Source: an uncultured Acidobacteriaceae bacterium
Lineage (GTDB): Bacteria > Acidobacteriota > Terriglobia > Bryobacterales > Bryobacteraceae
DNA: 64,000 nucleotides
Reading direction: 5' to 3'
Assembly (NCBI GenBank): GCA_963803455.1
Contig: CAWDMK010000009.1
Coordinates: 358-64,357 of the forward strand
In this document: positions 26,058 through 39,329 of the stretch, one piece after another
How the letters are laid out: each line of letters starts with the position of its first letter
Position numbering within the stretch: position 1 is the first letter of the stretch
Program-made: the position numbers and the translations under genes
The notes under the pieces: generated by a model
Database searches by the model: none
What the model was told of the DNA's origin: nothing
Seen by the model: the letters and a program-made list of their open reading frames with translations, nothing else

Positions 26058-26564
26058 ACGACGGAGTTGTCGCGGTCGCCGACGAGCGCGGAGAAAGGGA
26101 TAAAGCAGCGGATTTGAAATGAAGGTCAAAAACCCACCTGGGAATAGGTTCTGAGGACGAAACGCCCAGTGCATCGCGATGTAAACGGCGTACAGTAGCA
26201 TCAAGCTCGTAAGGACCATCGAGAGTGCTCTTTCTGCACCGACCCAATTCTCCCAGGCAAACGCGACAAGAGTGCAAACCACAAAGTTCGCTGTGACTAC
26301 TGCCAAGAAGAACTTGGCCATACGAATTCGCTCGGGTGTAATTCGCAGCACGGGAAGCCATGGATCTCGCACCGGACGCCGCTGAAACGTGATCACCATC
26401 GTGATTGCAAAGACTGCGGCGATGCTCTCCACAGCCCAGACGTTCCCCGGAAGACCCGCACGGCCAGCTAACGCCGCTAGATACCAAACCAGGGCACCGA
26501 CTGAAGCCACGCAGCCGTAGATAAAGCAATACCGCTCGACCCGCTTCCTCATATTTACTGCCAA
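26028..26564 (-). CDS. Four-TM membrane protein, putative immunity protein for the upstream Rhs toxin
   Basis: The start overlaps the Rhs stop by 10 nt. It has four hydrophobic helices and a basic tail, and no recognisable domain. Confidence 0.6.
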   Translation of the reverse strand: MAVNMRKRVERYCFIYGCVASVGALVWYLAALAGRAGLPGNVWAVESIAAVFAITMVITFQRRPVRDPWLPVLRITPERIRMAKFFLAVVTANFVVCTLVAFAWENWVGAERALSMVLTSLMLLYAVYIAMHWAFRPQNLFPGGFLTFISNPLLYPFLRARRRPRQLRRSDRTERHDQ

Positions 26565-29095
26565 CAGTTGTAGACGTCGTACGCAAAGCTGGCGGCGTTC
26601 AACAAATTGGCAATCGTCCCGGCACTGGATACGGCCTGTTCCAGAGTTTCTAGATCCCCCAACCGGCGCAAAATGTTCGCTTGTGTACTCGCGGATTGCC
26701 TTCCAAACCCGCTACGCATGGCGAGATTGGAGAGTCTATTGAGGGCACTCTCACCGCCCGCCGCCGCGTAGGCTGGATCCGCAAAGAACGTTCTGTACGC
26801 GTCCGCCAAACCCGCTCCGGCCTGAAATAGTGTGGGATCGGCAGTTACCCCGGCCCTATCGCTGAAGTACCATTCAAAGGGATGAAAATTCACCCCCGCT
26901 AAGTCCCCGACGAATTTCACGGCGTTGTATCCGGGTACGAAGCCCAAACCAAAATTTAACGCCGCATCGGCGGAGCATGCGAGTTTTTTCGTCTTGTCCG
27001 TTCCTGTGGGATCAAAATTGTCGATTGGGTCGTTCCCCGTGTAAGCGTAAAAATTGACATCGCCACCACTTAGACCCATCGGGTCTTCGCTGATAAATCT
27101 TTGGAAGGCGGGGTTGTGATACCTGGCGCGATAGAAATACAGCCCGGTTCCATCATTCTCCCGGCCTGTATATTGCGTCGCGCTGCTGCTCGATGCGCCG
27201 CTAGTGCTCGTATTGCCAAACGGCTCGTAACTGTATTGGATCTGGACAGTGCCCGAGGAATCCACCAAAGCCAGCACCGATCCCAGCGCATCGGTTAGCG
27301 GCGTCATGCTGCCGCTACTGTCAGTTCTCTGAAAGAACTCGTCCACGCCCCCGGTCAGGATGTTTGCGGCCCCGGAGTTCTCTTGAATCGAATTCACGCC
27401 CTCATAAAGGAAATTAGTAGCGCCGCCGCTAACTGTTTTGTTGGTTCGGCGGCTTACTGCGTCATATTGGAAGCTCGCGCCCCCGCCAATGCCGCTTAAT
27501 TGATTACGGGCATTCCAAGTAAACGCCCGGCTGCCATCGCTGGTCATATTCCCATTGGCATCGTAAGTGATCGCCGTTCCGTTCCAGTTTGTCAGTTCGT
27601 TGGCGGTGTCGTAGGTTGCTGAAGTCAGGGTGCTCGGGAATTCAGTGCGTGCAAGAGTACCCGAAACCTGAGTTCGCCGGCCCACTGCATCGTAGGTGTA
27701 ATTCAGAGTTCCTAACGAGTTCGAACCTAACTGATAATTGAGTCCTGTTAGCCGCGAATCGGTATCGTAAGTATAAGTAGCAGTTACACCGTTCGGCAGG
27801 GTCAACACGGAACGCCGATTGGCGTCGTCGTAAGTGAAGCCGACGGAAGAAGCGCCCTGGGTAATTTGAGTCAAGCGAGTAGCATCATCCCAAGCATAGG
27901 TCACATCGGGCTGCCCGGCGAGGGAGCGCTTGATTCGGCGCCCTGCAAGGTCATACGTGTATGACAAAGTGCCTTGCGGCGTCGTCTCGGTCAGTGGACG
28001 GCCCAGGCCATCATAGGCGTAAGAAATCGCACCCGAAGCAGAATCGGTGGCTTGGGTCAACCGGTCGCCTCCGTCATAAGTATAAGAAATCGTACTCTCG
28101 TAAGTCGTCGCGCCGCCGTTCACGACTTTATTGAATCCAGCGAATGTCACCCGGTTGAGCGAATCGTAGCTGTACGCGGTGACTTGTCCCTTGCGATCCG
28201 TTCTCGAAAGCACGTTCCCAAATAGATCGCGCTGTACGCTCTCAACCCTTTGAAGCGGGTCTGTGCGCGTCGTCCGCCGGTCCATGCCGTCATACGTGTA
28301 ACTTGTTATGCCATTTTTCGGGTCCGTAACGCTCAGCAGATTCCCATTCGGATCATAGGCGAACGAGACCACATGGCCTGCTGGATCGGTGGTCTTCAGC
28401 ATTTGATCCAGGTTGTCGTATTGAGAGCTTGTCACCTGCCCTATCGCATCGGTGATGGAAACGAGTCTACCTGCGCCATCTACAACACGAGAGGTTTTGT
28501 TCGACAGTGGGTCAGTGGTGCTGGTGAGATCGCCTCCAAAATAGTCCAACTGAGTCGAGTTTCCTACCCCATCGGTAAGGGTCGTCACTTGCCCGGCCGA
28601 ATTGTACGCCATCGTGGTCTGGTGCCCTAACGGATCAGTCGCAGCCGTCAAATTGCCGCTGGCATCGTATGTAAACGTCGCGGTGTGGTTCAAAGGATCG
28701 GTCACGCTCGCGACTCCGCTATAGGGCGAAGCGTACGTAGCCGTGGTAGTCGCCGCCTGGGGCGTGCCGTCCAGGAGTGTCGCCCGTGTGCAATTGCCGT
28801 TCGCGTCGAAATCGTAGCTTGTCTTATTCCCAAGCGGATCGGTGGCCGATTTTAGTAAGTTGTCTGCGTAGTACTCATATGTCGTCGCTTGTTGCTCGGG
28901 CTGTCCCAAAGCTCGGATGTCGTTCACCGTATAGCCGGCCCCATTGAAGATCACTCTGCGCACGTATCCTCTAATCGCGATGCGCGTGATTTGAAACCAT
29001 AGCTTGCGGAAATAGTGCGCCGTCGTTAAGCGGTCGGGCAAACTCGCATCCGCAACCTGATAGAACCGGCCCGCCACTGCCGCCGCGGGCAACAT
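26555..29095 (-). CDS. Rhs/YD-repeat polymorphic toxin with an unassigned C-terminal domain
   Basis: Dozens of YD repeats (YDANGN, Y.YD..GR). The Rhs core end is YTGRENDGTGLYFYRARYHNPAFQRFISEDPMG...NFYAYTGNDPIDNFDPTG, followed by a 148-aa tail. Confidence 0.9.
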   Translation of the reverse strand: MLPAAAVAGRFYQVADASLPDRLTTAHYFRKLWFQITRIAIRGYVRRVIFNGAGYTVNDIRALGQPEQQATTYEYYADNLLKSATDPLGNKTSYDFDANGNCTRATLLDGTPQAATTTATYASPYSGVASVTDPLNHTATFTYDASGNLTAATDPLGHQTTMAYNSAGQVTTLTDGVGNSTQLDYFGGDLTSTTDPLSNKTSRVVDGAGRLVSITDAIGQVTSSQYDNLDQMLKTTDPAGHVVSFAYDPNGNLLSVTDPKNGITSYTYDGMDRRTTRTDPLQRVESVQRDLFGNVLSRTDRKGQVTAYSYDSLNRVTFAGFNKVVNGGATTYESTISYTYDGGDRLTQATDSASGAISYAYDGLGRPLTETTPQGTLSYTYDLAGRRIKRSLAGQPDVTYAWDDATRLTQITQGASSVGFTYDDANRRSVLTLPNGVTATYTYDTDSRLTGLNYQLGSNSLGTLNYTYDAVGRRTQVSGTLARTEFPSTLTSATYDTANELTNWNGTAITYDANGNMTSDGSRAFTWNARNQLSGIGGGASFQYDAVSRRTNKTVSGGATNFLYEGVNSIQENSGAANILTGGVDEFFQRTDSSGSMTPLTDALGSVLALVDSSGTVQIQYSYEPFGNTSTSGASSSSATQYTGRENDGTGLYFYRARYHNPAFQRFISEDPMGLSGGDVNFYAYTGNDPIDNFDPTGTDKTKKLACSADAALNFGLGFVPGYNAVKFVGDLAGVNFHPFEWYFSDRAGVTADPTLFQAGAGLADAYRTFFADPAYAAAGGESALNRLSNLAMRSGFGRQSASTQANILRRLGDLETLEQAVSSAGTIANLLNAASFAYDVYNCWQ

Positions 29096-29669: not shown

Positions 29670-30581
29670 ATGCTCTCTGCTGCGCGAATTGCAGCAACGC
29701 AGGCCCCTCAATCGCCGCCCGCCGCTCCTGCTCCCGCTCCCGCTCCCGCTCCCGGAACGCAGACGCCCGGTACGCAAAACATCTCTCCCCCCAACGAGCC
29801 CGTCCGCAGAGGACGATTCGTGCCAGGACAGAGGCGTCCGCCCGGCGATCCCGCACAAATCGCGCGCGGCAAAATGTTGTTTGCCATTAGCTGCCGCGGC
29901 TGCCACGGTGCCGACCTGCGCGGCGGCGATCTGGGCGGCCCGAACCTTCTGCGCTCCCAAGTCGCCTTGAGCGATCAGAACGGCGAGTTGATCGTCCCCA
30001 TCATTCACGGGAGCCGTCAAAAAATGGGAATGCCGGCAATCGGCTTAAGTGATGCGGACGCAAACGCCGTGGCCGCCTATGTGCGCAGCGTCATCGAAAC
30101 GATTCAGGTACAGGGCGCTCCGCCTTCTGCTGCCAAGCCGCCGCCCAGCATTCTCATCGGCAACGCCGACGAAGGCAAAGCCTACTTCGCGACCAAGTGC
30201 CGCACCTGCCATTCCGAGGCGGGCGATCTCAGCAAAATAGCGACCCGCATACCGGATCCCAAGCGGCTCCAAAACGCTTGGCTAGCCGGAGGCACACTCG
30301 AGGAAGAGGACCCGCCCGAAGGCACAGCCGCAACTCCCCGTACCGTGACCGCCACCGTCACTCTTTCTTCCGGAGAAACCGTCGAAGGCAAGTTGGTCCG
30401 CGTGGATGACTTCTTGATCACCCTCGCTCTCGCCGACGGATCCGAAAAAACCTTTCGCCGCACCGGAGACACGCCGCGCGTGGTCATTCACGATCCTCTG
30501 AAGGTCCATCGCGATCTGCTCTCGCAATACAGCGACAAAGACATTCACGACGTAACCGCCTATCTGGTGACGCTCAAATGA
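29670..30581 (+). CDS. Dihaem c-type cytochrome
   Basis: Two CxxCH motifs (CRGCH, CRTCH) and a Pro/Ala-rich N-terminal linker. Its stop overlaps the start of the PQQ-propeller gene (ATGA). Confidence 0.8.
   Translation: MLSAARIAATQAPQSPPAAPAPAPAPAPGTQTPGTQNISPPNEPVRRGRFVPGQRRPPGDPAQIARGKMLFAISCRGCHGADLRGGDLGGPNLLRSQVALSDQNGELIVPIIHGSRQKMGMPAIGLSDADANAVAAYVRSVIETIQVQGAPPSAAKPPPSILIGNADEGKAYFATKCRTCHSEAGDLSKIATRIPDPKRLQNAWLAGGTLEEEDPPEGTAATPRTVTATVTLSSGETVEGKLVRVDDFLITLALADGSEKTFRRTGDTPRVVIHDPLKVHRDLLSQYSDKDIHDVTAYLVTLK
29724..29753 (+). repeat. Hexanucleotide microsatellite (GCTCCY)5 encoding (AP)n
   Basis: gctcct gctccc gctccc gctccc gctccc, inside the cytochrome c linker. Confidence 0.9.
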
Positions 30582-32266
30582 AGCTCAATCAACTCGCTCT
30601 CGCCGCATCTCTGCTCATTTCTCCGCTTCTCCTTCACGCGCAAGCCAACGGCTTGAATCCGGCCGACATTCTCAAGCCGCTCTCCAATTCCTGGCCCACC
30701 TATAGCGGCGACTACTCCGGCAAGCGCTACAGCGCGTTGAAGCAGGTGAATCGTTCCAACGTCCAACACCTCACGCTCGCCTGGATGATGCAGGTCACCC
30801 CTGGAACCGGCGAACCCAGCGAGCACCACCGGCACCGGCACTACGATGAATCAACTCCGCCGGTAATTGTCGGAGGCGAGGGCCCCGGCGACATCAACAT
30901 TCGCGGCGGCACCATCAAATCGTCGGCGCTCGAAGTCGATGGCACGCTCTACTTCACAATGCCCGACAATGCCTGGGCAGTCGACGCCCGCGACGGCCGT
31001 GAGCTCTGGCATTACTTCTGGAAAACCAAAGGTGGCACCCACATCGGCAATCGCGGCCTCGGCATGTGGCACGGCTATCTCTTCATGGAAACGCCCGACG
31101 ATTACCTCGTCTCGCTCGACGCCAAAACCGGCAAGGAGCGCTGGCACAAGGTCATCGCCAATGTCGACGACGGCTATTTCTCGACACCCGCTCCCGTCAT
31201 CATCGGCAACCACGTGCTGGTCGGAACGGGAAACGATATCGATTCTCCCGGCTTCCTCGATTCGTTTGATCCCGAAACAGGCGAACTGCAGTGGAAGCAC
31301 TACACAGTCCCCATGCAGAAGGGCGATCCCGGCCTCGATACCTGGGCGAGTCTCGATGCTGCGCGGCACGGCGGCGCCCAAACCTGGATTCCCGGTGCAT
31401 ACGATCCCGAAACCAACCTTTATATATTCGGTACCGGCAATCCCACTCCGGCTTTCACCAACGGTACGCGCGGCCCCGGCGACAACCTGTACACTTGCTC
31501 CCTGATCGCGGTCAATGTCGACACGGGCAAGATGGCCTGGTATTTCCAGACCTCGCCGCACGACATGCACGACTACGATTCAGCGCAAACGCCCGTACTA
31601 ATAGATGCACCGTTCGGCGGCAAAATGCGAAAGCTCGCAGTGACGGCAACGCGCAACGGCTACTACTTCACGATTGACCGCACCACCGGCGAGCATCTCG
31701 TAACCAGTAAGTGGGGTCTGTTGACGAACTGGGCCACGGGCCTGACGAAGTCTGGCGGACCCAAGCTCAACCCCGAAAAGGACGCGACCGTCGGCGGATC
31801 GCTGGTTTCACCTGGCTCAGACGGCGTCATCAACTGGGAGCCGCCCGCTTTCTCCCCGCAAACCGGCCTGCTCTATGTCTCCGAGCACAACACCTTCTCC
31901 GAGTTCTACCTCACCGACCTCGATCCGCGCGGCTCCATGGGCCTCGGCGGCAAGGAAGAGGCCGAGATCGGTTCAGGCGGCACCTACCTGACCGCGATCG
32001 ATTACAAAACCGGAAAAATCGCCTGGCGGCATCCTTATTACAGTGACGGAGGTGGTGGCGGCGGCCTATTGGCCACAGCGGGCGGACTGGTCTTTGGAGG
32101 CGACGGCGCAGGCAGCCTGGTCGCTCACGACTCCGCGACTGGCAAGCCTCTCTGGAACACGCGCATCGGCGAGGTCACGAATCCGCCCCAGACCTACATG
32201 CTCGACGGCCGTCAATACGTAATCGCAGCAACCGGCGATACACTCTGGGCCTTCGTCATGTATTGA
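30578..32266 (+). CDS. PQQ-type eight-bladed beta-propeller dehydrogenase homologue (quinoprotein ADH-like)
   Basis: WPTYSGDYSGKRYSALKQVN, repeated W-motif blades and a GGGGG loop near the C-terminus. It lacks the vicinal Cys-Cys of classical quinoprotein ADHs. Confidence 0.8.
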   Translation: MKLNQLALAASLLISPLLLHAQANGLNPADILKPLSNSWPTYSGDYSGKRYSALKQVNRSNVQHLTLAWMMQVTPGTGEPSEHHRHRHYDESTPPVIVGGEGPGDINIRGGTIKSSALEVDGTLYFTMPDNAWAVDARDGRELWHYFWKTKGGTHIGNRGLGMWHGYLFMETPDDYLVSLDAKTGKERWHKVIANVDDGYFSTPAPVIIGNHVLVGTGNDIDSPGFLDSFDPETGELQWKHYTVPMQKGDPGLDTWASLDAARHGGAQTWIPGAYDPETNLYIFGTGNPTPAFTNGTRGPGDNLYTCSLIAVNVDTGKMAWYFQTSPHDMHDYDSAQTPVLIDAPFGGKMRKLAVTATRNGYYFTIDRTTGEHLVTSKWGLLTNWATGLTKSGGPKLNPEKDATVGGSLVSPGSDGVINWEPPAFSPQTGLLYVSEHNTFSEFYLTDLDPRGSMGLGGKEEAEIGSGGTYLTAIDYKTGKIAWRHPYYSDGGGGGGLLATAGGLVFGGDGAGSLVAHDSATGKPLWNTRIGEVTNPPQTYMLDGRQYVIAATGDTLWAFVMY

Positions 32267-32313: not shown

Positions 32314-32866
32314 TTACCCTCGTCGCCCTTTATGCGCTAACCGGCTGCACGCGTCGGGAGTCTTCAGCATTTTGATCGCATCGCCTCCGGATTCGATGGT
32401 GTCGATCTTGCCAGCGGTATCGATCACAAACGTGACGCGGTTCGCGACTCCGTATTTCGGCAGATACACTCCGTATTCCTGAGATACTTTGCGGTCCAGA
32501 AAGTCACTCAAGAGCGGAAACGTCAACCCGAGTTGCTCCGCGAATGCCTTCTGCGATGGGCCGTTATCGGTCGCTGATGCCGAACACTTTCGCCCCCGTC
32601 TCCTGAAAATGTTGCATACCAGCCTGGTACGCTTTCATCTCCGCCGTTCAACCGCCTGTGAACGCGGCCGGGAAAAACGCCAGAACGATGGTGCTCTTGC
32701 CGATGAAGTCCGCAAGGTGGACCGTCCCGCCATCCGTCGAAGGAAGCGTGAAATCAGGAGCTTTGTCCCCCACCTTTAGCGTGCTTGACGGCGGCCCCGA
32801 CTCTTGCGCGAACACGCTGAACGCACCCGCGAGCGTTGCAACCAGAAGTCTTCTGTTGATTCTCAC
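32314..32866 (-). CDS. Secreted peroxiredoxin (AhpC/TSA-redoxin family) with TGA at the peroxidatic Cys position; candidate selenoprotein; also frameshifted near 32572
   Basis: The signal peptide plus [12 protein letters not shown]...[13 protein letters not shown] is followed by TGA (complement of 32648-32650), then [25 protein letters not shown]. After a 1-nt shift it continues [25 protein letters not shown]... (ORF 32314..32526). Confidence 0.65.
32614..32632 (-). promoter_or_regulatory. Putative bacterial SECIS upper stem-loop
   Basis: The mRNA GCGUACC-AGGCU-GGUAUGC gives 7 bp and a 5-nt G-containing loop, starting 15 nt after the UGA. A lower stem GAAA/UUUC starts 11 nt after the UGA. 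Confidence 0.4.
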
Positions 32867-32958
32867 TATGCTGCCCCCGAGACTACGACCTTAGCACGAA
32901 AACGCACACTTCGCCCCCTTACGTATATAGTGGTTGGGACCGCCTTGAGGAGAAGTGA

Positions 32959-34906
32959 ATGCCAAATCGAAAATTTGAACTGATTGCAGCTGCCCTGGTA
33001 GTGTTCGCAGCCGTAGCCGCGAACGCCTCGGCACAGGACGCCTCATCGCAGGCAGCCTCTGAAGCTCGGGACCATAACTACGCGTGGCTGCAAATTAGCG
33101 CGTTCACCGACATTCCTCTCGCCCGGGCCGACGTGCGCGTGTACGACACCGCGGGACATCTTCTCTTCGAAAAGTGCTCGGCCACGAACACGCAAGGGGT
33201 TTTCCCCGCGCGAGTCCGGGCGCTTCCGAGAGACTTTCGCGTCACGGTGACCTGGGATGCAAGCAAGCAAGACGACTTTGATCACATCTTCTTAGGCAAA
33301 TTCAAGCTCAGCGCCGACGAGCGGAACTTCAATCCGGTCCACGGCGTCGTGTACGTGAATCCCGTCACCACCATCGTGAGCCGCCTTATCGATCGCTTTC
33401 CACATTTGAAGCTGCACGAAGCGAGAGCGCTCGTCCGGCGCGCTCTGGGTCTCCCGCCCAACGCCAGCCTCGGGGCGGCCCTCCGTCAAGGGAAATTCTT
33501 CACCCCTCAGTATTTCTCCGTCAAGGAGTTTCTGAAAAAGGCGAACGAGTACGGCGGAGTCGAGGAGTACATCAAGTTCCTCATCACCGAGATGCTGGAC
33601 CATCCAGGCAAGAGATTTCTCTTTGCTCCCGCGCCGAAGAGTTCGCTCGGCGGCGCCTTGAGTTTCGTCGCTGAAAATCTCGCCAAAGGCGCGCTGTCCT
33701 GGGCCGCCGGGCAAGGATGCGGCTGGGCTTTAGAGAGTGCCGGGATCACCACCCCGGATGCAACCGCGGAAGACATCGCCAATCTCCAAGCAGGGCTGAC
33801 GGATTTGCAAAGCAGCGTTGACCAGCTCAGCAAGCAAATCGACGCACTCACGAACCAGGTTCTTGCTCAGTTCACTACAACCCAGTACAACCAGATTGTC
33901 GTGCCGGCTCTGCAGCTGGCATCCCTAGTTAACGGTGTCGAGGAGGACATAGCTTACTTCAATTCCGCATGCCCACCCGGCCCATACGATCCCGAGTCGG
34001 TGAATGTCGATTTTTGTACCAGCCGGAAGGCATACATTATCGGCGAGCTCAGTGATGTCACGATCAGCCAATCCTTTGGGACACTCTCGACCTACGTGCT
34101 CGACAATCCGACCCTGAGCTATAAGGGCCTGGTTCACCTGTTCAGCCAATCGCTCGGCCAAACAGTGCGTTTTTTCCGGCCGGCTGATTCGACGAAGGTT
34201 CAAAATATGTTCGACTACTGGGATGCGGTGCAAACGCAAGCCGCGAATCTCAAAGTGGAGCTCCTGCATATGCAGGGCGCGCAAAACAGCCCGGCCACCA
34301 GCGGCCAGTTAACGGGTTTCCTTGGCGACCCGAATGCCAACCCGCCCACGCAGGGGACTTTTCAAAACACGCGCGCTGCCGAACAGAAATTGATGTTCCC
34401 GGCGGTTCCGGTAGGCACCGTGGTCGATACGAAGACCAGGTTGATGTGGAGAACGGACATTCCAACAGACCGGAACGCCTGCTACTTGAGATGGCCGTAC
34501 AGCGCCTCCAACTATCCGTACACTGACAACACGTTCTCAAACGGATTGTGGGGCTGGAGCTCTCCGTTTTTCGCGGACTTCCAGACTTTGGTGGACGGCG
34601 GCGGCAGCGATCCGATGGGATGGCTGATCGCTCAAACCAAAGCGGTCACTCCAGACACCCCGCAGAGCGCGGGTTTCCCTGACATCGTGTATGCGGGTAC
34701 TCATTATGCAGAGAACCCTGGGTATGTGCGTCGATAACACAGCGGTGTGGTCAGTAGACACAGCACCCCCTATCAATGGCTCTTCGGCCTGGTACGTGTT
34801 TGACTTCAAGAATGCAACGAAAGTAGCCGGTGCCACGGGGTATCAATTTTGGCTTTTCCTTAGACGCCCCCTCGAAAGGGATGAGCAGTACTATTGGTAT
34901 CCATAA
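32959..34906 (+). CDS. Large secreted hypothetical protein (coiled-coil segment, DUF1566-like C-terminus), frameshifted near 34715
   Basis: Signal peptide MPNRKFELIAAALVVFAAVAANASAQ and coiled coil AEDIANLQAGLTDLQSSVDQLSKQIDALTNQV. The C-terminal TRLMWRTD...WGWSSPFFADFQTLV continues in ORF 34691..34906. Confidence 0.6.
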
Positions 34907-34979
34907 CGTGGCGCAGGCCATCGTTTTTTGTGGCCTGCGGAGCGATGGGTGATGCTAAAGAAATCTATACGACACGCCA

Positions 34980-36533
34980 CTAACCCCGCACATTGCGCGC
35001 CAGCGTGAGCGATCCGTCGGCGTTCGTCTTCTGCCGGCACGCCCAGGTCACCGGATAGCGAACGCCTTTCACTTCCAGTTCCGCTTTCAGTCGCAAGCCC
35101 TTCCAGTCTGTTCCGGGCGGCAGCATCAACATCGCCTGTCGAATCCCCGTGGGCTTCGGGTATCCCGCATCAACACATCCGCTGACGTTGACGGCCCCGT
35201 TCTCGCTAAACACTGTCAGTCGCAACACACCCGGCACGCCCGCGACCCCATTATTCGCCAGCCCAATGACCAGCCCCGGCGTCCCCTCCCGCTCGAAGCT
35301 CCATATAAAGGACGGCCGAACCCGATACCCGATGTGCCGCGCAATATAATCGATCGGCTCCGGATATTTGTCGTAATAGCTCAGCACGTTTTTCGCCGCT
35401 TCGTTATGCCAGTTCCACACCGACCAGTAGTTCGCGCCGACATCGAGCACGTGCGAAGTGATCTTCTCGTTGTAGGTGACTCCCTCATCCAGTCCCACGC
35501 GCTGCGGATCGCCCGTCGTCATGCCCACCTCGCAAACCGCCGCCGTCCACGACGGCCGGTTGCTTAACGCTTCGATCTGCGTGTTCTCGATAAAGATCGT
35601 GTCCGTGCGAATCCAGTTATGACTGCGAATCGTCCGGTCGAGCAGGTCAGAATTGCCCACATGGCTAAAGTCCGGCTGTGTATTGGTGACCAGAGGCACT
35701 TTGGTCCAGATTTCGAGCTGCGTCTCGAACATCTTCATCCACGTCTGCTCGGCGACGACATCGCTCGGAAAGATGTTGCCTTCAAACGGCCACGTGTGCC
35801 CCTCGCCCCAGAAGCCGTACATCATCGTGTCCATGTACTCGATCCGGGGATTTCCATTCAACTCAGCCGCCAGTAGCTCGTTCAGCTCGCGAAACGCCGC
35901 CTGATACGCCGGGTGATCGTAACGCGGCATGCGGTGCTCTTTCCGGTAACGCGTCTCCGAGCGGTTGCCTTTCCACTCGCCCTTGAGCTTCACGTAGGGA
36001 ACCTTGGCCATGAGGAACTCCGGCATCCCCGGCTCTGGGAAATCCGGGTTCTCCAGCATGATGCGAAACCCGACCCGCTTGTTGTACCGTTCCGCCAGAT
36101 CGAACGTGATCTTCCACCAGTCGGGCAAGTCCAGCCTGCCCGGACTCTTCTGAACCTCTCTCCAATTAGGCCGGATATAAATCTTCTGAGTAAAGGGAAG
36201 CTTCACCAGATCTTCGATCGATTTCTCGAGCGTTTCTCCTGGCAGCCGCGGCGGTCCGGTATCGCCCGAAACGTAAACCACAAGACCCATGCCGTAGTTA
36301 GGAACGATCTCCGTCGACGGCGTGGTCACCATCACGACATCGCTGTTGGGAACGACGGCATCAGCGGAGTATTGCGGGAACGGCCCCTGGTACAACCGGT
36401 CGCTGACGGGCGGCCCGGAGCCGAAATCATACTTTTCCCAGTTGTGCTCCGGAATGACGGCCTGCGCCGCCACAGGAACCACCGCCGCCGCCGATCCGGC
36501 CCCTAGCGCATGCAAAAATCCTCGCCGATTCAA
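34980..36533 (-). CDS. TAT-exported hypothetical protein (a glycoside-hydrolase-like TIM barrel is only a guess)
   Basis: TTG start after GGAGAG and twin-arginine leader NRRGFLHALGAGSAAAVVPVAAQA. It is a long, well-behaved ORF with no motif I can name. Confidence 0.6.
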   Translation of the reverse strand: MNRRGFLHALGAGSAAAVVPVAAQAVIPEHNWEKYDFGSGPPVSDRLYQGPFPQYSADAVVPNSDVVMVTTPSTEIVPNYGMGLVVYVSGDTGPPRLPGETLEKSIEDLVKLPFTQKIYIRPNWREVQKSPGRLDLPDWWKITFDLAERYNKRVGFRIMLENPDFPEPGMPEFLMAKVPYVKLKGEWKGNRSETRYRKEHRMPRYDHPAYQAAFRELNELLAAELNGNPRIEYMDTMMYGFWGEGHTWPFEGNIFPSDVVAEQTWMKMFETQLEIWTKVPLVTNTQPDFSHVGNSDLLDRTIRSHNWIRTDTIFIENTQIEALSNRPSWTAAVCEVGMTTGDPQRVGLDEGVTYNEKITSHVLDVGANYWSVWNWHNEAAKNVLSYYDKYPEPIDYIARHIGYRVRPSFIWSFEREGTPGLVIGLANNGVAGVPGVLRLTVFSENGAVNVSGCVDAGYPKPTGIRQAMLMLPPGTDWKGLRLKAELEVKGVRYPVTWACRQKTNADGSLTLARNVRG

Positions 36534-36596
36534 CCTCTCCTCCCTTGCGCTACCTGCATCTGTTAGCTTTTCAGTGTAATTCCAGCCGCGCTGTTC
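36398..36596. repeat. Direct repeat copy A (about 200 bp): promoter, 5'UTR, TAT leader and first ~45 codons of gene 34980-36533
   Basis: It aligns colinearly with 39048-39246 at an offset of 2650 bp, roughly 80-85% identical by eye. Confidence 0.8.
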
Positions 36597-36693
36597 CGAT
36601 TGCTTTACGAGTTACTATTCGGGCCAAGCCTTGGCACCTGTCCGGAATAGGCCTCTCATCGTACTGGATTGAGCAGCGTCGGACAACTGGCCG

Positions 36694-38362
36694 TTATTGG
36701 TTAAGCGCGTCTGGGTGAAGCGTCAAGTAGCGGTGGACGTCTGAGATGACAACCGAGCCTTCACCTACGGCAGAGGCCACGCGCTTCACGGAGGCGGTTC
36801 TCACATCTCCTACGGCGTAAATGCCGGCGATATTGGTTGCATAAGGCGTGCTATCGAATCCTTGCGGGCCGCCCGTGATGACGAAGCCCTTCTCGTCCAG
36901 GGCAACGACCCCCTTGAGCCACGACGTGTTGGGTTGAGCACCGATCATGACGAACAGGTCTTCGATAGGCTTGGTCGTTTCCGATCCGTCGCGGCGATTC
37001 ACCCATCTTACTTGTTCCAGGTGCGATCTGCCTTCAAGCGACACGATTTCGGTCTCGGTCAGAACTGTGATGCGCCGCGATTGTTCGATTCGCGAGAGCA
37101 GATATTGCGACATGGTGGCGGCGAGTGACTTGCCGCGAACCATGATGTAGACGCACGCCGCGCTTTGCGCGAGAAACAGAGCAGCCTGTCCGGCGGAGTT
37201 GCCGCCGCCTACGACAACGACCTCTTTGTCGCGACAGTAGGCCGTCTCCATGCCCGTTGCTGCATAGTAGATTCCCTGATTTTCAAACCTCTCGAAGTTC
37301 TCGAGCGGCAGCTTGCGGTATTGTGCGCCGGTGGCGATGACGACCGCTCGGGAGCACAAGGAAATGTGGTCTTCAAGGGTGATCTTGTGAACATCACCAT
37401 AGCGTTCTAGGGTAAGCGCGTCGCGGGACACGGCGAAGCGCACGCCGAATTTCAGTGCTTGCACAAAGGCACGGTTCGCGAGTCTTTGCCCCGAGATGCC
37501 GGTGGGAAAGCCGAGATAGTTTTCGATTTTGGAACTTGTGCCCGCCTGTCCTCCAGGCGCAATGCCTTCTATGACGACCGTGGAGAGACCCTCCGAAGAG
37601 GCGTAGACGGCGGCAGCGAGACCGGCAGGACCGGCCCCGACCACAGCGACATCATAGACGGTGCTTTTGTCCGGCAACTCCGAGATACCGAGTTCGTCGG
37701 CGAGCTTGGAAACCGTGGGACGATGCAGCACTCGACCATCGCTGAAGACCACAGCGGGCCAGGAGTCCGCATCCAGTGGAGATAGCACGGAGGAGCTTTT
37801 GTAACCTTCGACCGAAGCCACGTGATGGGGATAGCCGTTGCGCCGCAGGAAGCGTTGCAGCTTGAGGGTCTCGGCCCCGCCTTCATAACCGATTAGCGTC
37901 ACGCCGACTTTGGTCTGGTACGCCAAACCGATGCGACGCCAGATGAACGCCTGCATGATTAGGTTTGCGATTTCGCCTTCGGCACGCATAAGGCGCCGCA
38001 AGTCGCCGCGTGTGACGCGCAGTAACACGCTCGGGACGGTCGTGCGGGCGCCCACCAGGGTCGGCTGGTCGTTCAGCATGTCGAGCTCGCCCGTGAACTG
38101 GTGCTCGCCGAGATCGATCACGGTTTCGCTCGTGTTCTCTTCGTTGCCGGTGTAGATGTTGACATTGCCTTCGAGCGACAACGAACATGTCAGTGCCGCG
38201 CTCGCCACGCGCAAAGATCGTCACGCCGGCGGGTTGCGTGACCTCAGACGCGTAGGCGCGGATGGTTTCGACCATGGCGTCCGTCAGGGGCGGGAACGCC
38301 ATTTCCGGCCGGAAGGCCGGGAAGTCGAGTTGAGCTGAGGGGTCGCTGAACGCGCTCGCCAT
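36694..38362 (-). CDS. Cyclic-nucleotide-binding domain fused to a thioredoxin-reductase-like flavoprotein, frameshifted near 38178
   Basis: The cNMP-like N-terminus GVTIFARGERGTDMFVV | LEGNVNIY...GELDML comes first. Then DVAVVGAGPAGLAAAVYA, GGGNSAGQAALFL and AVGDV. Confidence 0.8.
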
Positions 38363-39044: not shown

Positions 39045-39183
39045 GACTGTCGGTGATCGGCGGGCCGGCACCGAAATTATATTTTTCTCAGTTGTGCTCC
39101 GGAGCGACCGCCTGCGCCGCCACAGGGGCCACCGCCGCAGCCGACCAGGCGCCCAGCGCGTGCAAAAAACCTCGCCGATTCAA
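39045..39183 (-). pseudogene. 5' fragment of a paralogue of gene 34980-36533 (TAT leader plus ~15 codons) with an internal TGA
   Basis: It reads LNRRGFLHALGAWSAAAVAPVAAQAVAPEHN*EKYNFGAGPPITD. The TGA at complement 39088-39090 replaces the Trp of HNWEKY. Homology ends about 35 nt before the RibD_C start. Confidence 0.75.
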
Positions 39184-39246
39184 GCTCTCCTCCCTTCCGC
39201 TACTCCCACCTGTCTGCCATCCAGTGTCATTCTAGCCGCGCGGTTT
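39048..39246. repeat. Direct repeat copy B (about 200 bp)
   Basis: See copy A at 36398-36596. Confidence 0.8.
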
Positions 39247-39329
39247 CGCCGCATGACCACGCACCGAGGGAATTCATCTGGACGCGGAGATGGTCGCCGC
39301 GCGGGGGTAGATTAGAATAGCGTATTTTC

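Follow-up and report, generated by a model that had tools for sequence, protein, structure and literature searches.

A candidate selenocysteine-containing peroxiredoxin with a SECIS-like hairpin in an uncultured acidobacterium

Introduction

Peroxiredoxins with a T/S-x-x-U active site constitute one of the 25 bacterial selenoprotein families described by Zhang et al. 2006 (PMC1794560), and the supplement of that study contains a member, Anaeromyxobacter_dehalogenans_2, with the sequence …AFYTKAFTPGUTRELSAYRDRY…SCPLHKGKKG. The same study reported SelA, SelB and two FdhA sequences containing selenocysteine (Sec) for the acidobacterium Solibacter usitatus, and the supplement of the deep-Sep paper (PMC12013277) lists Occallatibacter riparius (Acidobacteriaceae) as a Sec user with AhpD-like, deiodinase-like and FdhA Sec proteins. 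An acidobacterial motif, FTGGU, is not in the catalogue of Zhang et al. (PMC1794560), and we found no description of an acidobacterial clade of Sec peroxiredoxins in the searchable literature. Here we analyze a peroxiredoxin gene with an in-frame TGA codon on a 64,000-nt stretch of DNA (contig CAWDMK010000009.1, positions 358 to 64,357, of assembly GCA_963803455.1) from an uncultured Acidobacteriaceae bacterium. This whole stretch is referred to as the window in the following, and all coordinates refer to it unless another locus is named.

An initial annotation of the window had proposed that the TGA occupies the peroxidatic Cys codon of a secreted peroxiredoxin, that a hairpin resembling a selenocysteine insertion sequence (SECIS) follows, and that the gene is a candidate selenoprotein; its statement that Sec peroxiredoxins are an established bacterial class agrees with their listing in PMC1794560. 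We consider it very likely that the locus encodes an exported-type, AhpE/BCP-like peroxiredoxin with Sec as the peroxidatic residue and a SECIS hairpin in its mRNA, and that a break in its reading frame is a probable consensus error. The selenoprotein reading is preferred because the TGA is conserved, coding constraint is found on both sides of it, and the hairpin that follows shows covariation and occurs specifically in genes of the TGA type.

Results and discussion

Gene structure and predicted product

The gene begins with GTG at 32866 on the minus strand and ends with TAA at 32316..32314. Its first open reading frame (ORF; 32866..32648) encodes 72 aa ending in ...FFPAAFTGG, followed by the TGA at 32650..32648. 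Reading through this codon yields 25 aa before the frame is lost, and the −1-shifted frame resumes at 32571 and runs to the TAA. A product of 183 aa was reconstructed by placing Cys at the TGA and removing the extra base at 32572. This product matched the Pfam family AhpC-TSA (PF00578) with E = 1.6e-38 and 131.9 bits (cutoff 26) over residues 32–155, corresponding to profile positions 1–122 of 124 and bridging both the TGA and the frame break. The closest solved structure was AhpE of Mycobacterium tuberculosis (Rv2238c; E = 7e-25), and BCP-type peroxiredoxins came next. In the alignment with AhpE the TGA falls on the peroxidatic Cys (AhpE ffplaftgiC), the active-site motif P-x3-T/S-x2-Cp is present as P-AAF-T-GG-[TGA], a P-x3-T-x2-[C/U] form, and the catalytic Arg is kept (ANRVTFVID in the window, ANRGTFVVD in AhpE). 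The position of the TGA at the peroxidatic Cys, as put forward in the initial annotation, is thus confirmed by the AhpE alignment and the AhpC-TSA match, and the ORF that it described as a signal peptide plus a coding segment stopping at this TGA was found exactly where it had been placed, the signal being predicted by eye and by hydrophobicity.

Most proteins encoded by homologues with TGA at this codon (TGA-type homologues) have an N-terminus with a positive charge, then a hydrophobic stretch and an A-x-A-like end (LLAQ, ALAQ). A hydrophobic 12-mer (mean Kyte-Doolittle ≥1.8) occurs within the first 40 aa of 89 of the 120 TGA-type homologues. The signal-like site of the window protein is …VFA/QE, and a site such as …LLA/Q is found in homologues. 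These features suggest that the window protein and most of its TGA-type homologues are exported. Towards the other end of the protein, the conserved C-terminal Cys is a candidate resolving Cys which could form a selenenylsulfide; it is also present in the Anaeromyxobacter member (…SCPLHKG; PMC1794560 supplement). A consensus scan for promoters and terminators around the gene found nothing.

TGA at the peroxidatic codon across homologues

One genome per species and a metagenome collection were scanned for homologues, with the homologous codon placed by motif and tblastn, and the related loci (169 in number, cited here by L numbers) totaled 1.59 Mb. The homologous codon was TGA at 120 of 190 sites, TGC at 50 and TGT at 19, and all loci with more than 70% identity to the window protein carry TGA. 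A protein search with the reconstructed sequence retrieved about 15 clusters of 106–108 aa (86–91% identity; starting MKAYQ...), all of which begin at the first Met 3' of the TGA and some of which have up to 73 members. The best full-length match, P0001 (82% identity; L002 267-815, L003 757-1305), has W at the site (FTGG-W-TAEMK), the gene caller having rendered TGA as Trp. Cys forms (FTGG-C-TNEMK) appeared in this search only at ≤78% identity. The DNA of three independent contigs has TGA at the peroxidatic codon, and their annotation consists either of two fragments of 71 and 108 aa, both matching AhpC-TSA, or of a protein with the TGA translated as Trp. These public calls, which split the gene or put Trp at the TGA, agree with the expectation of the initial annotation that gene callers miss genes of this kind.

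The TGA-type genes are mostly from Acidobacteriota. The respective metagenome-assembled genomes (MAGs) are labeled Acidobacteriaceae, Bryobacteraceae/Bryobacterales, Solibacteraceae, Terriglobia, Blastocatellia, Pyrinomonadaceae and Chloracidobacterium; outside the phylum, TGA-type genes were found in Anaeromyxobacter (including the complete A. oryzae genome) and in a small number of other bins, among them planctomycete ones. Two adjacent paralogues, each with its own TGA, are present in many acidobacterial loci.

Several observations on these loci are recorded here in their own right. In L021 (9270-9542 and 10013-10288) both copies of a tandem pair have a TGA and their own hairpin, and tandem pairs of TGA-type peroxiredoxin genes likewise occur in L023, L024, L026-L033, L095, L101, L103, L104, L106 and L108; in some pairs (e.g., L095, L024, L101) the N-terminus of the second copy is not signal-like. 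Other TGA-type peroxiredoxin genes have a different sequence downstream of the codon and other candidate hairpins (L116, L118, L133, L126, L054, L163, and likewise L045, L074, L124, L061, L068). The candidate hairpin of L116, L118 and L133 is CUUCCAG...CUGGAAG with a long loop, and the bin labels within this divergent set include Planctomycetota, Thermoanaerobaculia, Burkholderiales and Zixiibacteriota. It is possible that the set arose by independent Cys-to-Sec conversions or that it comprises other SECIS variants. Finally, a TGA-type copy with 79% identity to the window protein lies on a contig binned as Solirubrobacteraceae (Actinomycetota; L008, CBAAAA010000110.1), which could be a binning error or a case of lateral transfer because this copy is similar to the acidobacterial copies.

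Coding constraint on both sides of the TGA

Codon-position entropy was calculated for 24 distinct sequences from the clade to which the window gene belongs. The 40 codons preceding the TGA gave 0.26, 0.12 and 1.35 bits at codon positions 1, 2 and 3, and the 100 codons after it gave 0.43, 0.28 and 1.26 bits, respectively. Both sides of the TGA therefore show one and the same signature, that of purifying selection on a protein. A split gene, the halves of which are translated separately, was also considered as an explanation and was ruled out: in 63 of the 120 TGA-type genes, the first eight codons 3' of the TGA include no ATG, GTG or TTG, and the C-terminal half is therefore not an independently initiated gene.

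A covarying hairpin downstream of the TGA

The mRNA hairpin GCGUACC-AGGCU-GGUAUGC spans the positions 15–33 nt downstream of the UGA. Folding adds an eighth, A-U pair and leaves a GGC triloop, the stem beginning 15 nt and the loop 24 nt past the UGA. The hairpin pointed out in the initial annotation is thus present and has the G-containing loop described there, but its conserved stem begins 15 nt, rather than 11 nt, past the UGA. The 51 nt from the UGA fold with −16 kcal/mol (z = −3.42; none of 200 dinucleotide shuffles folded as well), so that the hairpin, which the same annotation had wished to see compared with shuffled sequence, scored better. In the 24 clade sequences, the third-position entropy was only 0.28 bits in the hairpin codons +6 to +12 vs. 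1.34 bits elsewhere. Synonymous sites are frozen in the hairpin codons, which is a constraint at the RNA level.

The structure is tied to the TGA. Over the 48 nt after the codon, the mean z was −2.3 in 43 TGA-type loci vs. +0.2 in 37 loci of the Cys type. The nearest Cys-type genes (L164 and L165; z = +1.5 and +0.1) have no hairpin despite encoding similar peptides (EMKNYQAS, EMKTYQTE). Close relatives that have Cys codons and lack the hairpin had been named in the initial annotation as a finding that would speak against its proposal; the close relatives carry TGA and the conserved hairpin instead.

An ungapped alignment of 88 distinct hairpin sequences was used to assess covariation. Its five apical pairs were 97.7% paired, with compensatory changes at three of the five. 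Shuffled controls were 88.3% paired and in none of 500 cases reached 97.7%, and pairing dropped to 11–55% when the partner columns were slid. Pair 24-32 was UA in 48 sequences, CG in 40 and unpaired in none, and pair 23-33 was AU in 80 and UA in 8. The double changes couple a synonymous or conservative change on one arm with a change in a different codon on the other, for example Tyr UAC/UAU with Gly GGU / Asp GAU, or Tyr UAC / Phe UUC with Gly GGU/GGA, and selection on the protein alone would not explain such paired double changes. In a variant with a bulged U (type B; 62 sequences), nine pairs were 96.2% paired and five of the nine had compensatory changes, pair 21-36 being GC in 46 sequences, AU in 10, UA in 1 and GU in 2. 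The window's variant has no bulge, and in its clade (26 sequences) the 8-bp stem was 100% paired with compensatory changes at four of the eight pairs.

A further helix below this stem, tested as a part of the element, was rejected: in the 26 clade sequences it was poorly conserved (73% paired, with many unpaired cells), and it was missing from the minimum free energy (MFE) folds of five relatives (L009, L010, L012, L016, L088). The outer GAAA/UUUC pairing that the initial annotation had drawn around the hairpin is accordingly not conserved.

Bacterial SECIS elements have, by consensus, a G in the apical loop and a loop located 16–37 nt from the UGA. The window hairpin falls within this description, as a covarying stem-loop with a GGC or, in relatives, GUC loop beginning 24 nt past the UGA. 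The hairpin is an RNA structure under selection and is linked to genes of the TGA type.

These data also bear on the simplest alternative, a plain pseudogene in which the TGA is a nonsense mutation of the Cys codon, the gene is dead together with its frameshift and the hairpin is coincidental. The window copy does have two lesions under standard translation, and neighboring genes are frame-broken too. However, a nonsense mutation would not persist under constraint across a phylum, and 120 homologous genes from several classes have TGA at this very codon, with purifying selection intact on both sides and with a downstream hairpin that covaries and is missing from the Cys forms. A plain pseudogene is therefore extremely improbable. 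Taken together, the Sec peroxiredoxin with a SECIS-like hairpin suggested by the initial annotation is supported by the TGA at 120 of 190 sites, the constraint on both sides, the covariation and the Cys forms without hairpin, and we have high confidence that the codon is decoded as Sec in this family.

The frame break and the quality of the assembly

The frame break near 32572 noted in the initial annotation was confirmed and consists of a single inserted G that is private to this assembly. All 27 of 27 close relatives read ...ATCAGCACCGA... (AGCACC, or AGTACC), whereas the window reads ATCAGC-G-ACCGA. A programmed frameshift at this site was rejected, as the extra base occurs in 0 of these 27 relatives. 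The closest genome, the MAG chromosome OY969780.1 (Acidobacteriaceae; L004), shares synteny with the window over 4 kb, at a nucleotide identity of about 94%; its peroxiredoxin and that of the window, with the G removed, are 94% identical over the best aligned segment. Compared with L004, four private single-base insertions were found in 4.6 kb of the window (38741, 38374, 38176 and 32572), none of them inside a homopolymer. Three of four syntenic genes are broken in the window and intact in L004. The ORFs of L004 are intact at 226, 584 and 517 aa, and the first two are split in the window; these are a 226-aa ORF and a 584-aa flavoprotein with a cyclic-nucleotide-binding domain and similarity to thioredoxin reductase. 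The remark in the initial annotation that many genes of the window are frame-broken is thus matched by further private 1-nt insertions in the neighboring genes.

Because the extra G at 32572 is private and one of four private insertions in 4.6 kb, we consider an error in the assembly consensus its most likely cause. The L015 and L016 copies show private frame breaks of their own close to the C-terminus of the gene; they belong to the same MAG series as L004 (MFD09603), and their breaks would fit indel errors in that assembly class. The data suggest that the window derives from an error-prone consensus and that its other frame breaks are equally suspect.

Alternatively, the family could be a genuine one of Sec peroxiredoxins in which this particular copy decayed recently through a real 1-nt insertion at 32572. 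In favor of this, the insertion is present in the sequence and lies outside a homopolymer. Yet four private 1-nt insertions within 4.6 kb are more typical of consensus error than of a free-living bacterium, MAGs from a long-read project (L015 and L016) have private breaks of their own in the same gene, and no other signs of decay were seen in a protein so similar to that of L004 once the G is removed. We thus regard recent decay as unlikely and favor a putatively functional Sec peroxiredoxin gene with an error in its consensus sequence. Should the extra G be real, it would mark a very recent lesion confined to a single genome, and the gene family as such does not share it. The features of the locus are compiled in Table 1.

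Table 1 Features of the peroxiredoxin locus, with window coordinates and supporting evidence.
Feature	Position	Strand	Evidence
Peroxiredoxin gene (AhpC/TSA, AhpE/BCP-like)	32314..32866	-	Sequence, translations, Pfam, structure match
Predicted N-terminal signal peptide, cut before QE	32807..32866	-	By eye and hydrophobicity
Candidate Sec codon TGA at the peroxidatic Cys position	32648..32650	-	TGA in 120/190 homologous sites; AhpE alignment
SECIS-like hairpin, 8-bp stem GCGUACCA/UGGUAUGC, GGC apical loop	32614..32632	-	Folding, covariation, entropy
Optional lower helix GGAGAUG/CAUUUUC	32605..32642	-	MFE fold; weak
Single extra G, breaks the frame (GIS-TDN)	32572	-	Absent from 27 relatives; gap vs. 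L004
C-terminal Cys codon (PDA-C-SRLAH), candidate resolving Cys	32347..32349	-	Kept in Sec-type fragments and Cys-type homologues

Decoding of the UGA and evidence to the contrary

Several results weigh against the interpretation as a Sec peroxiredoxin. ARAGORN detected no tRNA-Sec in the window or in 27 of the loci, and tblastn searches with Solibacter SelA, the N-domain of Solibacter SelB and Treponema SelD had no matches in the window and the 1.59 Mb of related loci. A search for SelA homologues gave 8000 matches at E ≤ 1e-30, and the best 120, all ≥69% identical to Solibacter SelA, include one labeled as from an acidobacterial (Acidobacteriia) MAG; none of these best 120 could be tied to a genome with a TGA-type peroxiredoxin, including those of L004 (5,018,718 bp) and L019 (6,301,730 bp). 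Rfam, at gathering-threshold and permissive settings, assigned no SECIS family to the hairpin; it found only two tRNAs in the window and, near the site, one chance match (E = 7.2) on the opposite strand. No NCBIfam model reached its cutoff for the window protein, which leaves it without a ready selenoprotein family name: the best match was the BCP/thioredoxin-dependent thiol peroxidase model NF006960 (86.3 bits vs. a cutoff of 140). The geometry close to that of the Escherichia coli fdhF SECIS, as claimed in the initial annotation, holds for the loop motif and the A-U closing pair, but the window hairpin is located about 5 nt further from the UGA, and the fdhF-type combination of 11-nt spacing, a GGUC-type loop and a bulged U on the 5' strand was not found in it. 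The hairpin alignments contain related sequences, and the shuffle controls consequently exaggerate the significance, although this concern about kinship is smaller in view of the slid-partner controls and the many different types of pair. Lastly, the window copy is frame-broken as assembled and may be a genuine recent pseudogene. On the supporting side, SelA homologues are very abundant in acidobacterial metagenome data.

A different decoding of the UGA, by near-cognate suppression with Trp or Cys or by a reassigned code and with a hairpin that only stimulates read-through, would be in line with the public gene call P0001, which translates the codon as W, and with the lack of any detected Sec machinery gene in the window or the 1.59 Mb of related loci. 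This explanation conflicts with a range of findings. TGA ends 15 of the 30 window ORFs of at least 300 aa and is the commonest stop among them, and the genetic code is therefore not reassigned. The codon stands for a redox-active Cys, the two residues forming a classic Sec/Cys pair, and a Trp at the peroxidatic site would be catalytically dead. The hairpin resembles the fdhF SECIS in its position, G-containing loop and A-U closing pair, and the same subfamily has been catalogued as a selenoprotein in Anaeromyxobacter. We consider decoding by anything other than Sec very improbable.

On the preferred reading, as a Sec peroxiredoxin, the UGA at 32650..32648 would not be read as a stop during translation. 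Instead, the mRNA hairpin (32632..32614) would act as a bacterial SECIS and recruit the SelB-GTP-Sec-tRNA(Sec) complex. After its export, the full-length protein would reduce peroxides via a selenenic acid intermediate, which is possibly resolved by the conserved C-terminal Cys. We infer the SelB-dependent insertion of Sec, the export and the catalytic chemistry, as well as the error origin of the frame break, from sequence.

Genomic neighborhood

The cyclic-nucleotide-binding domain of the flavoprotein mentioned above (36694-38362, minus strand; 6476-8230 in L004) is fused to a pyridine nucleotide-disulphide oxidoreductase of the thioredoxin-reductase-like type. Its gene lies upstream of the peroxiredoxin gene on the same strand, with one gene between them in L004, and its product may be a redox partner of the peroxiredoxin or be co-regulated with it. 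Between the peroxiredoxin gene and the 517-aa ORF, the window contains about 2 kb (32909-34979) with a 592-aa ORF (32959..34737, plus strand), the product of which has a hydrophobic segment at its N-terminus and matches no Pfam family. This segment is missing in L004, where the two genes adjoin and are co-oriented, and is a lineage-specific insertion. A 199-nt direct repeat with 82% identity (36400-36598 and 39050-39248) covers with one copy the 5' end of the 517-aa ORF and the region upstream of it, and the other copy is located past the 5' end of the 226-aa gene. The repeat might be a leader or promoter that is shared, or else stem from duplication of an N-terminus. On the other side of the peroxiredoxin gene are genes for an 846-aa RHS-repeat protein (26555-29095, minus strand) and for cytochrome c followed by a pyrroloquinoline quinone (PQQ)-dependent dehydrogenase (29670-32266, plus strand), the latter being convergent with the peroxiredoxin gene.

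Implications

Since gene callers split the gene or render the TGA as Trp, public databases contain truncated copies in the hundreds and at least one copy with a mistranslation. Recognition of the Sec codon restores a complete antioxidant enzyme and marks the organism as a probable selenium user, and the alignment of 88 hairpin sequences with its covariation could seed a covariance model for Sec genes in Acidobacteriota. In the data examined, this predicted acidobacterial branch is very widespread in soil Acidobacteria. Its breadth (Acidobacteriaceae, Bryobacteraceae, Terriglobia, Blastocatellia) suggests that selenium supply may matter for the defense of dominant soil bacteria against oxidative stress. 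Only tentatively, and with some doubt, we extend this to a phylum-wide, largely unannotated clade of exported Sec peroxiredoxins in aerobic soil Acidobacteriota that often occur in tandem and use their own SECIS variant. If this were true, selenium-dependent periplasmic peroxide defense would be a general trait of a very abundant soil phylum, and the clade would constitute a class of Sec-type selenoproteins whose export does not involve a Tat-dependent cofactor.

Comparison with known systems

PrxU of the Eubacterium acidaminophilum type (NF040737) is, like the product proposed here, a peroxiredoxin with Sec at the peroxidatic position. It belongs to another peroxiredoxin subfamily (2-Cys/AhpC-like) with the active site D-F-T-F-V-U, and with 69 bits vs. 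a curated equivalog cutoff of 270 the window protein is not a member of this model. M. tuberculosis AhpE (PDB 1xvw, 1xxu, 4x0x, 5id2) shares with the window protein the FFP-x-AFTG-x-C context and the arginine of RxTFV(I/V)D. AhpE and the archaeal and bacterial BCP/PrxQ proteins are Cys enzymes without a signal peptide, whereas the window protein has a proposed Sec and a predicted signal peptide, and its C-terminus carries an additional Cys tail.

In E. coli fdhF, the UGA is codon 140, and the upper stem and the loop of the SECIS begin 11 and 19 nt past it. As in fdhF, the hairpin of the window lies in the coding sequence directly 3' of the UGA and has an A-U-closed apical loop starting with GG. 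The loops read A-GGUC-U in fdhF and A-GGC-U or A-GUC-U in the window family, and the bulged U, on the 5' strand in fdhF, is found on the 3' strand in the type-B variants. In its placement and in the chemistry of its loop, the element is thus similar to a bacterial SECIS, but it departs from the geometry of fdhF.

The closest described relative is Anaeromyxobacter_dehalogenans_2, with which the window protein shares the AhpC/TSA fold, the T-x-x-U site, a similar downstream peptide (U-T-R-E-L-S-A-Y-R-D-R-Y in Anaeromyxobacter) and the C-terminal Cys-x-x-H-K-G tail. Moreover, the Anaeromyxobacter loci L049, L062 and L070 have the TGA and a hairpin at the same offset as the window. The two differ in that the window's branch has F-T-G-G-U as its active site and CCA-GGC-UGG as its hairpin, in contrast to CCG-GGAU-CGG in Anaeromyxobacter, and in that the acidobacterial branch is far more widespread in the data examined than the catalogued member and often occurs as tandem pairs. 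By these likenesses, both genes plainly belong to the same subfamily. This kind of gene is well established, and our result therefore extends existing knowledge and overturns nothing: the window gene is most aptly regarded as a new member of a known selenoprotein family and, more broadly, as a representative of a large unannotated branch of it.

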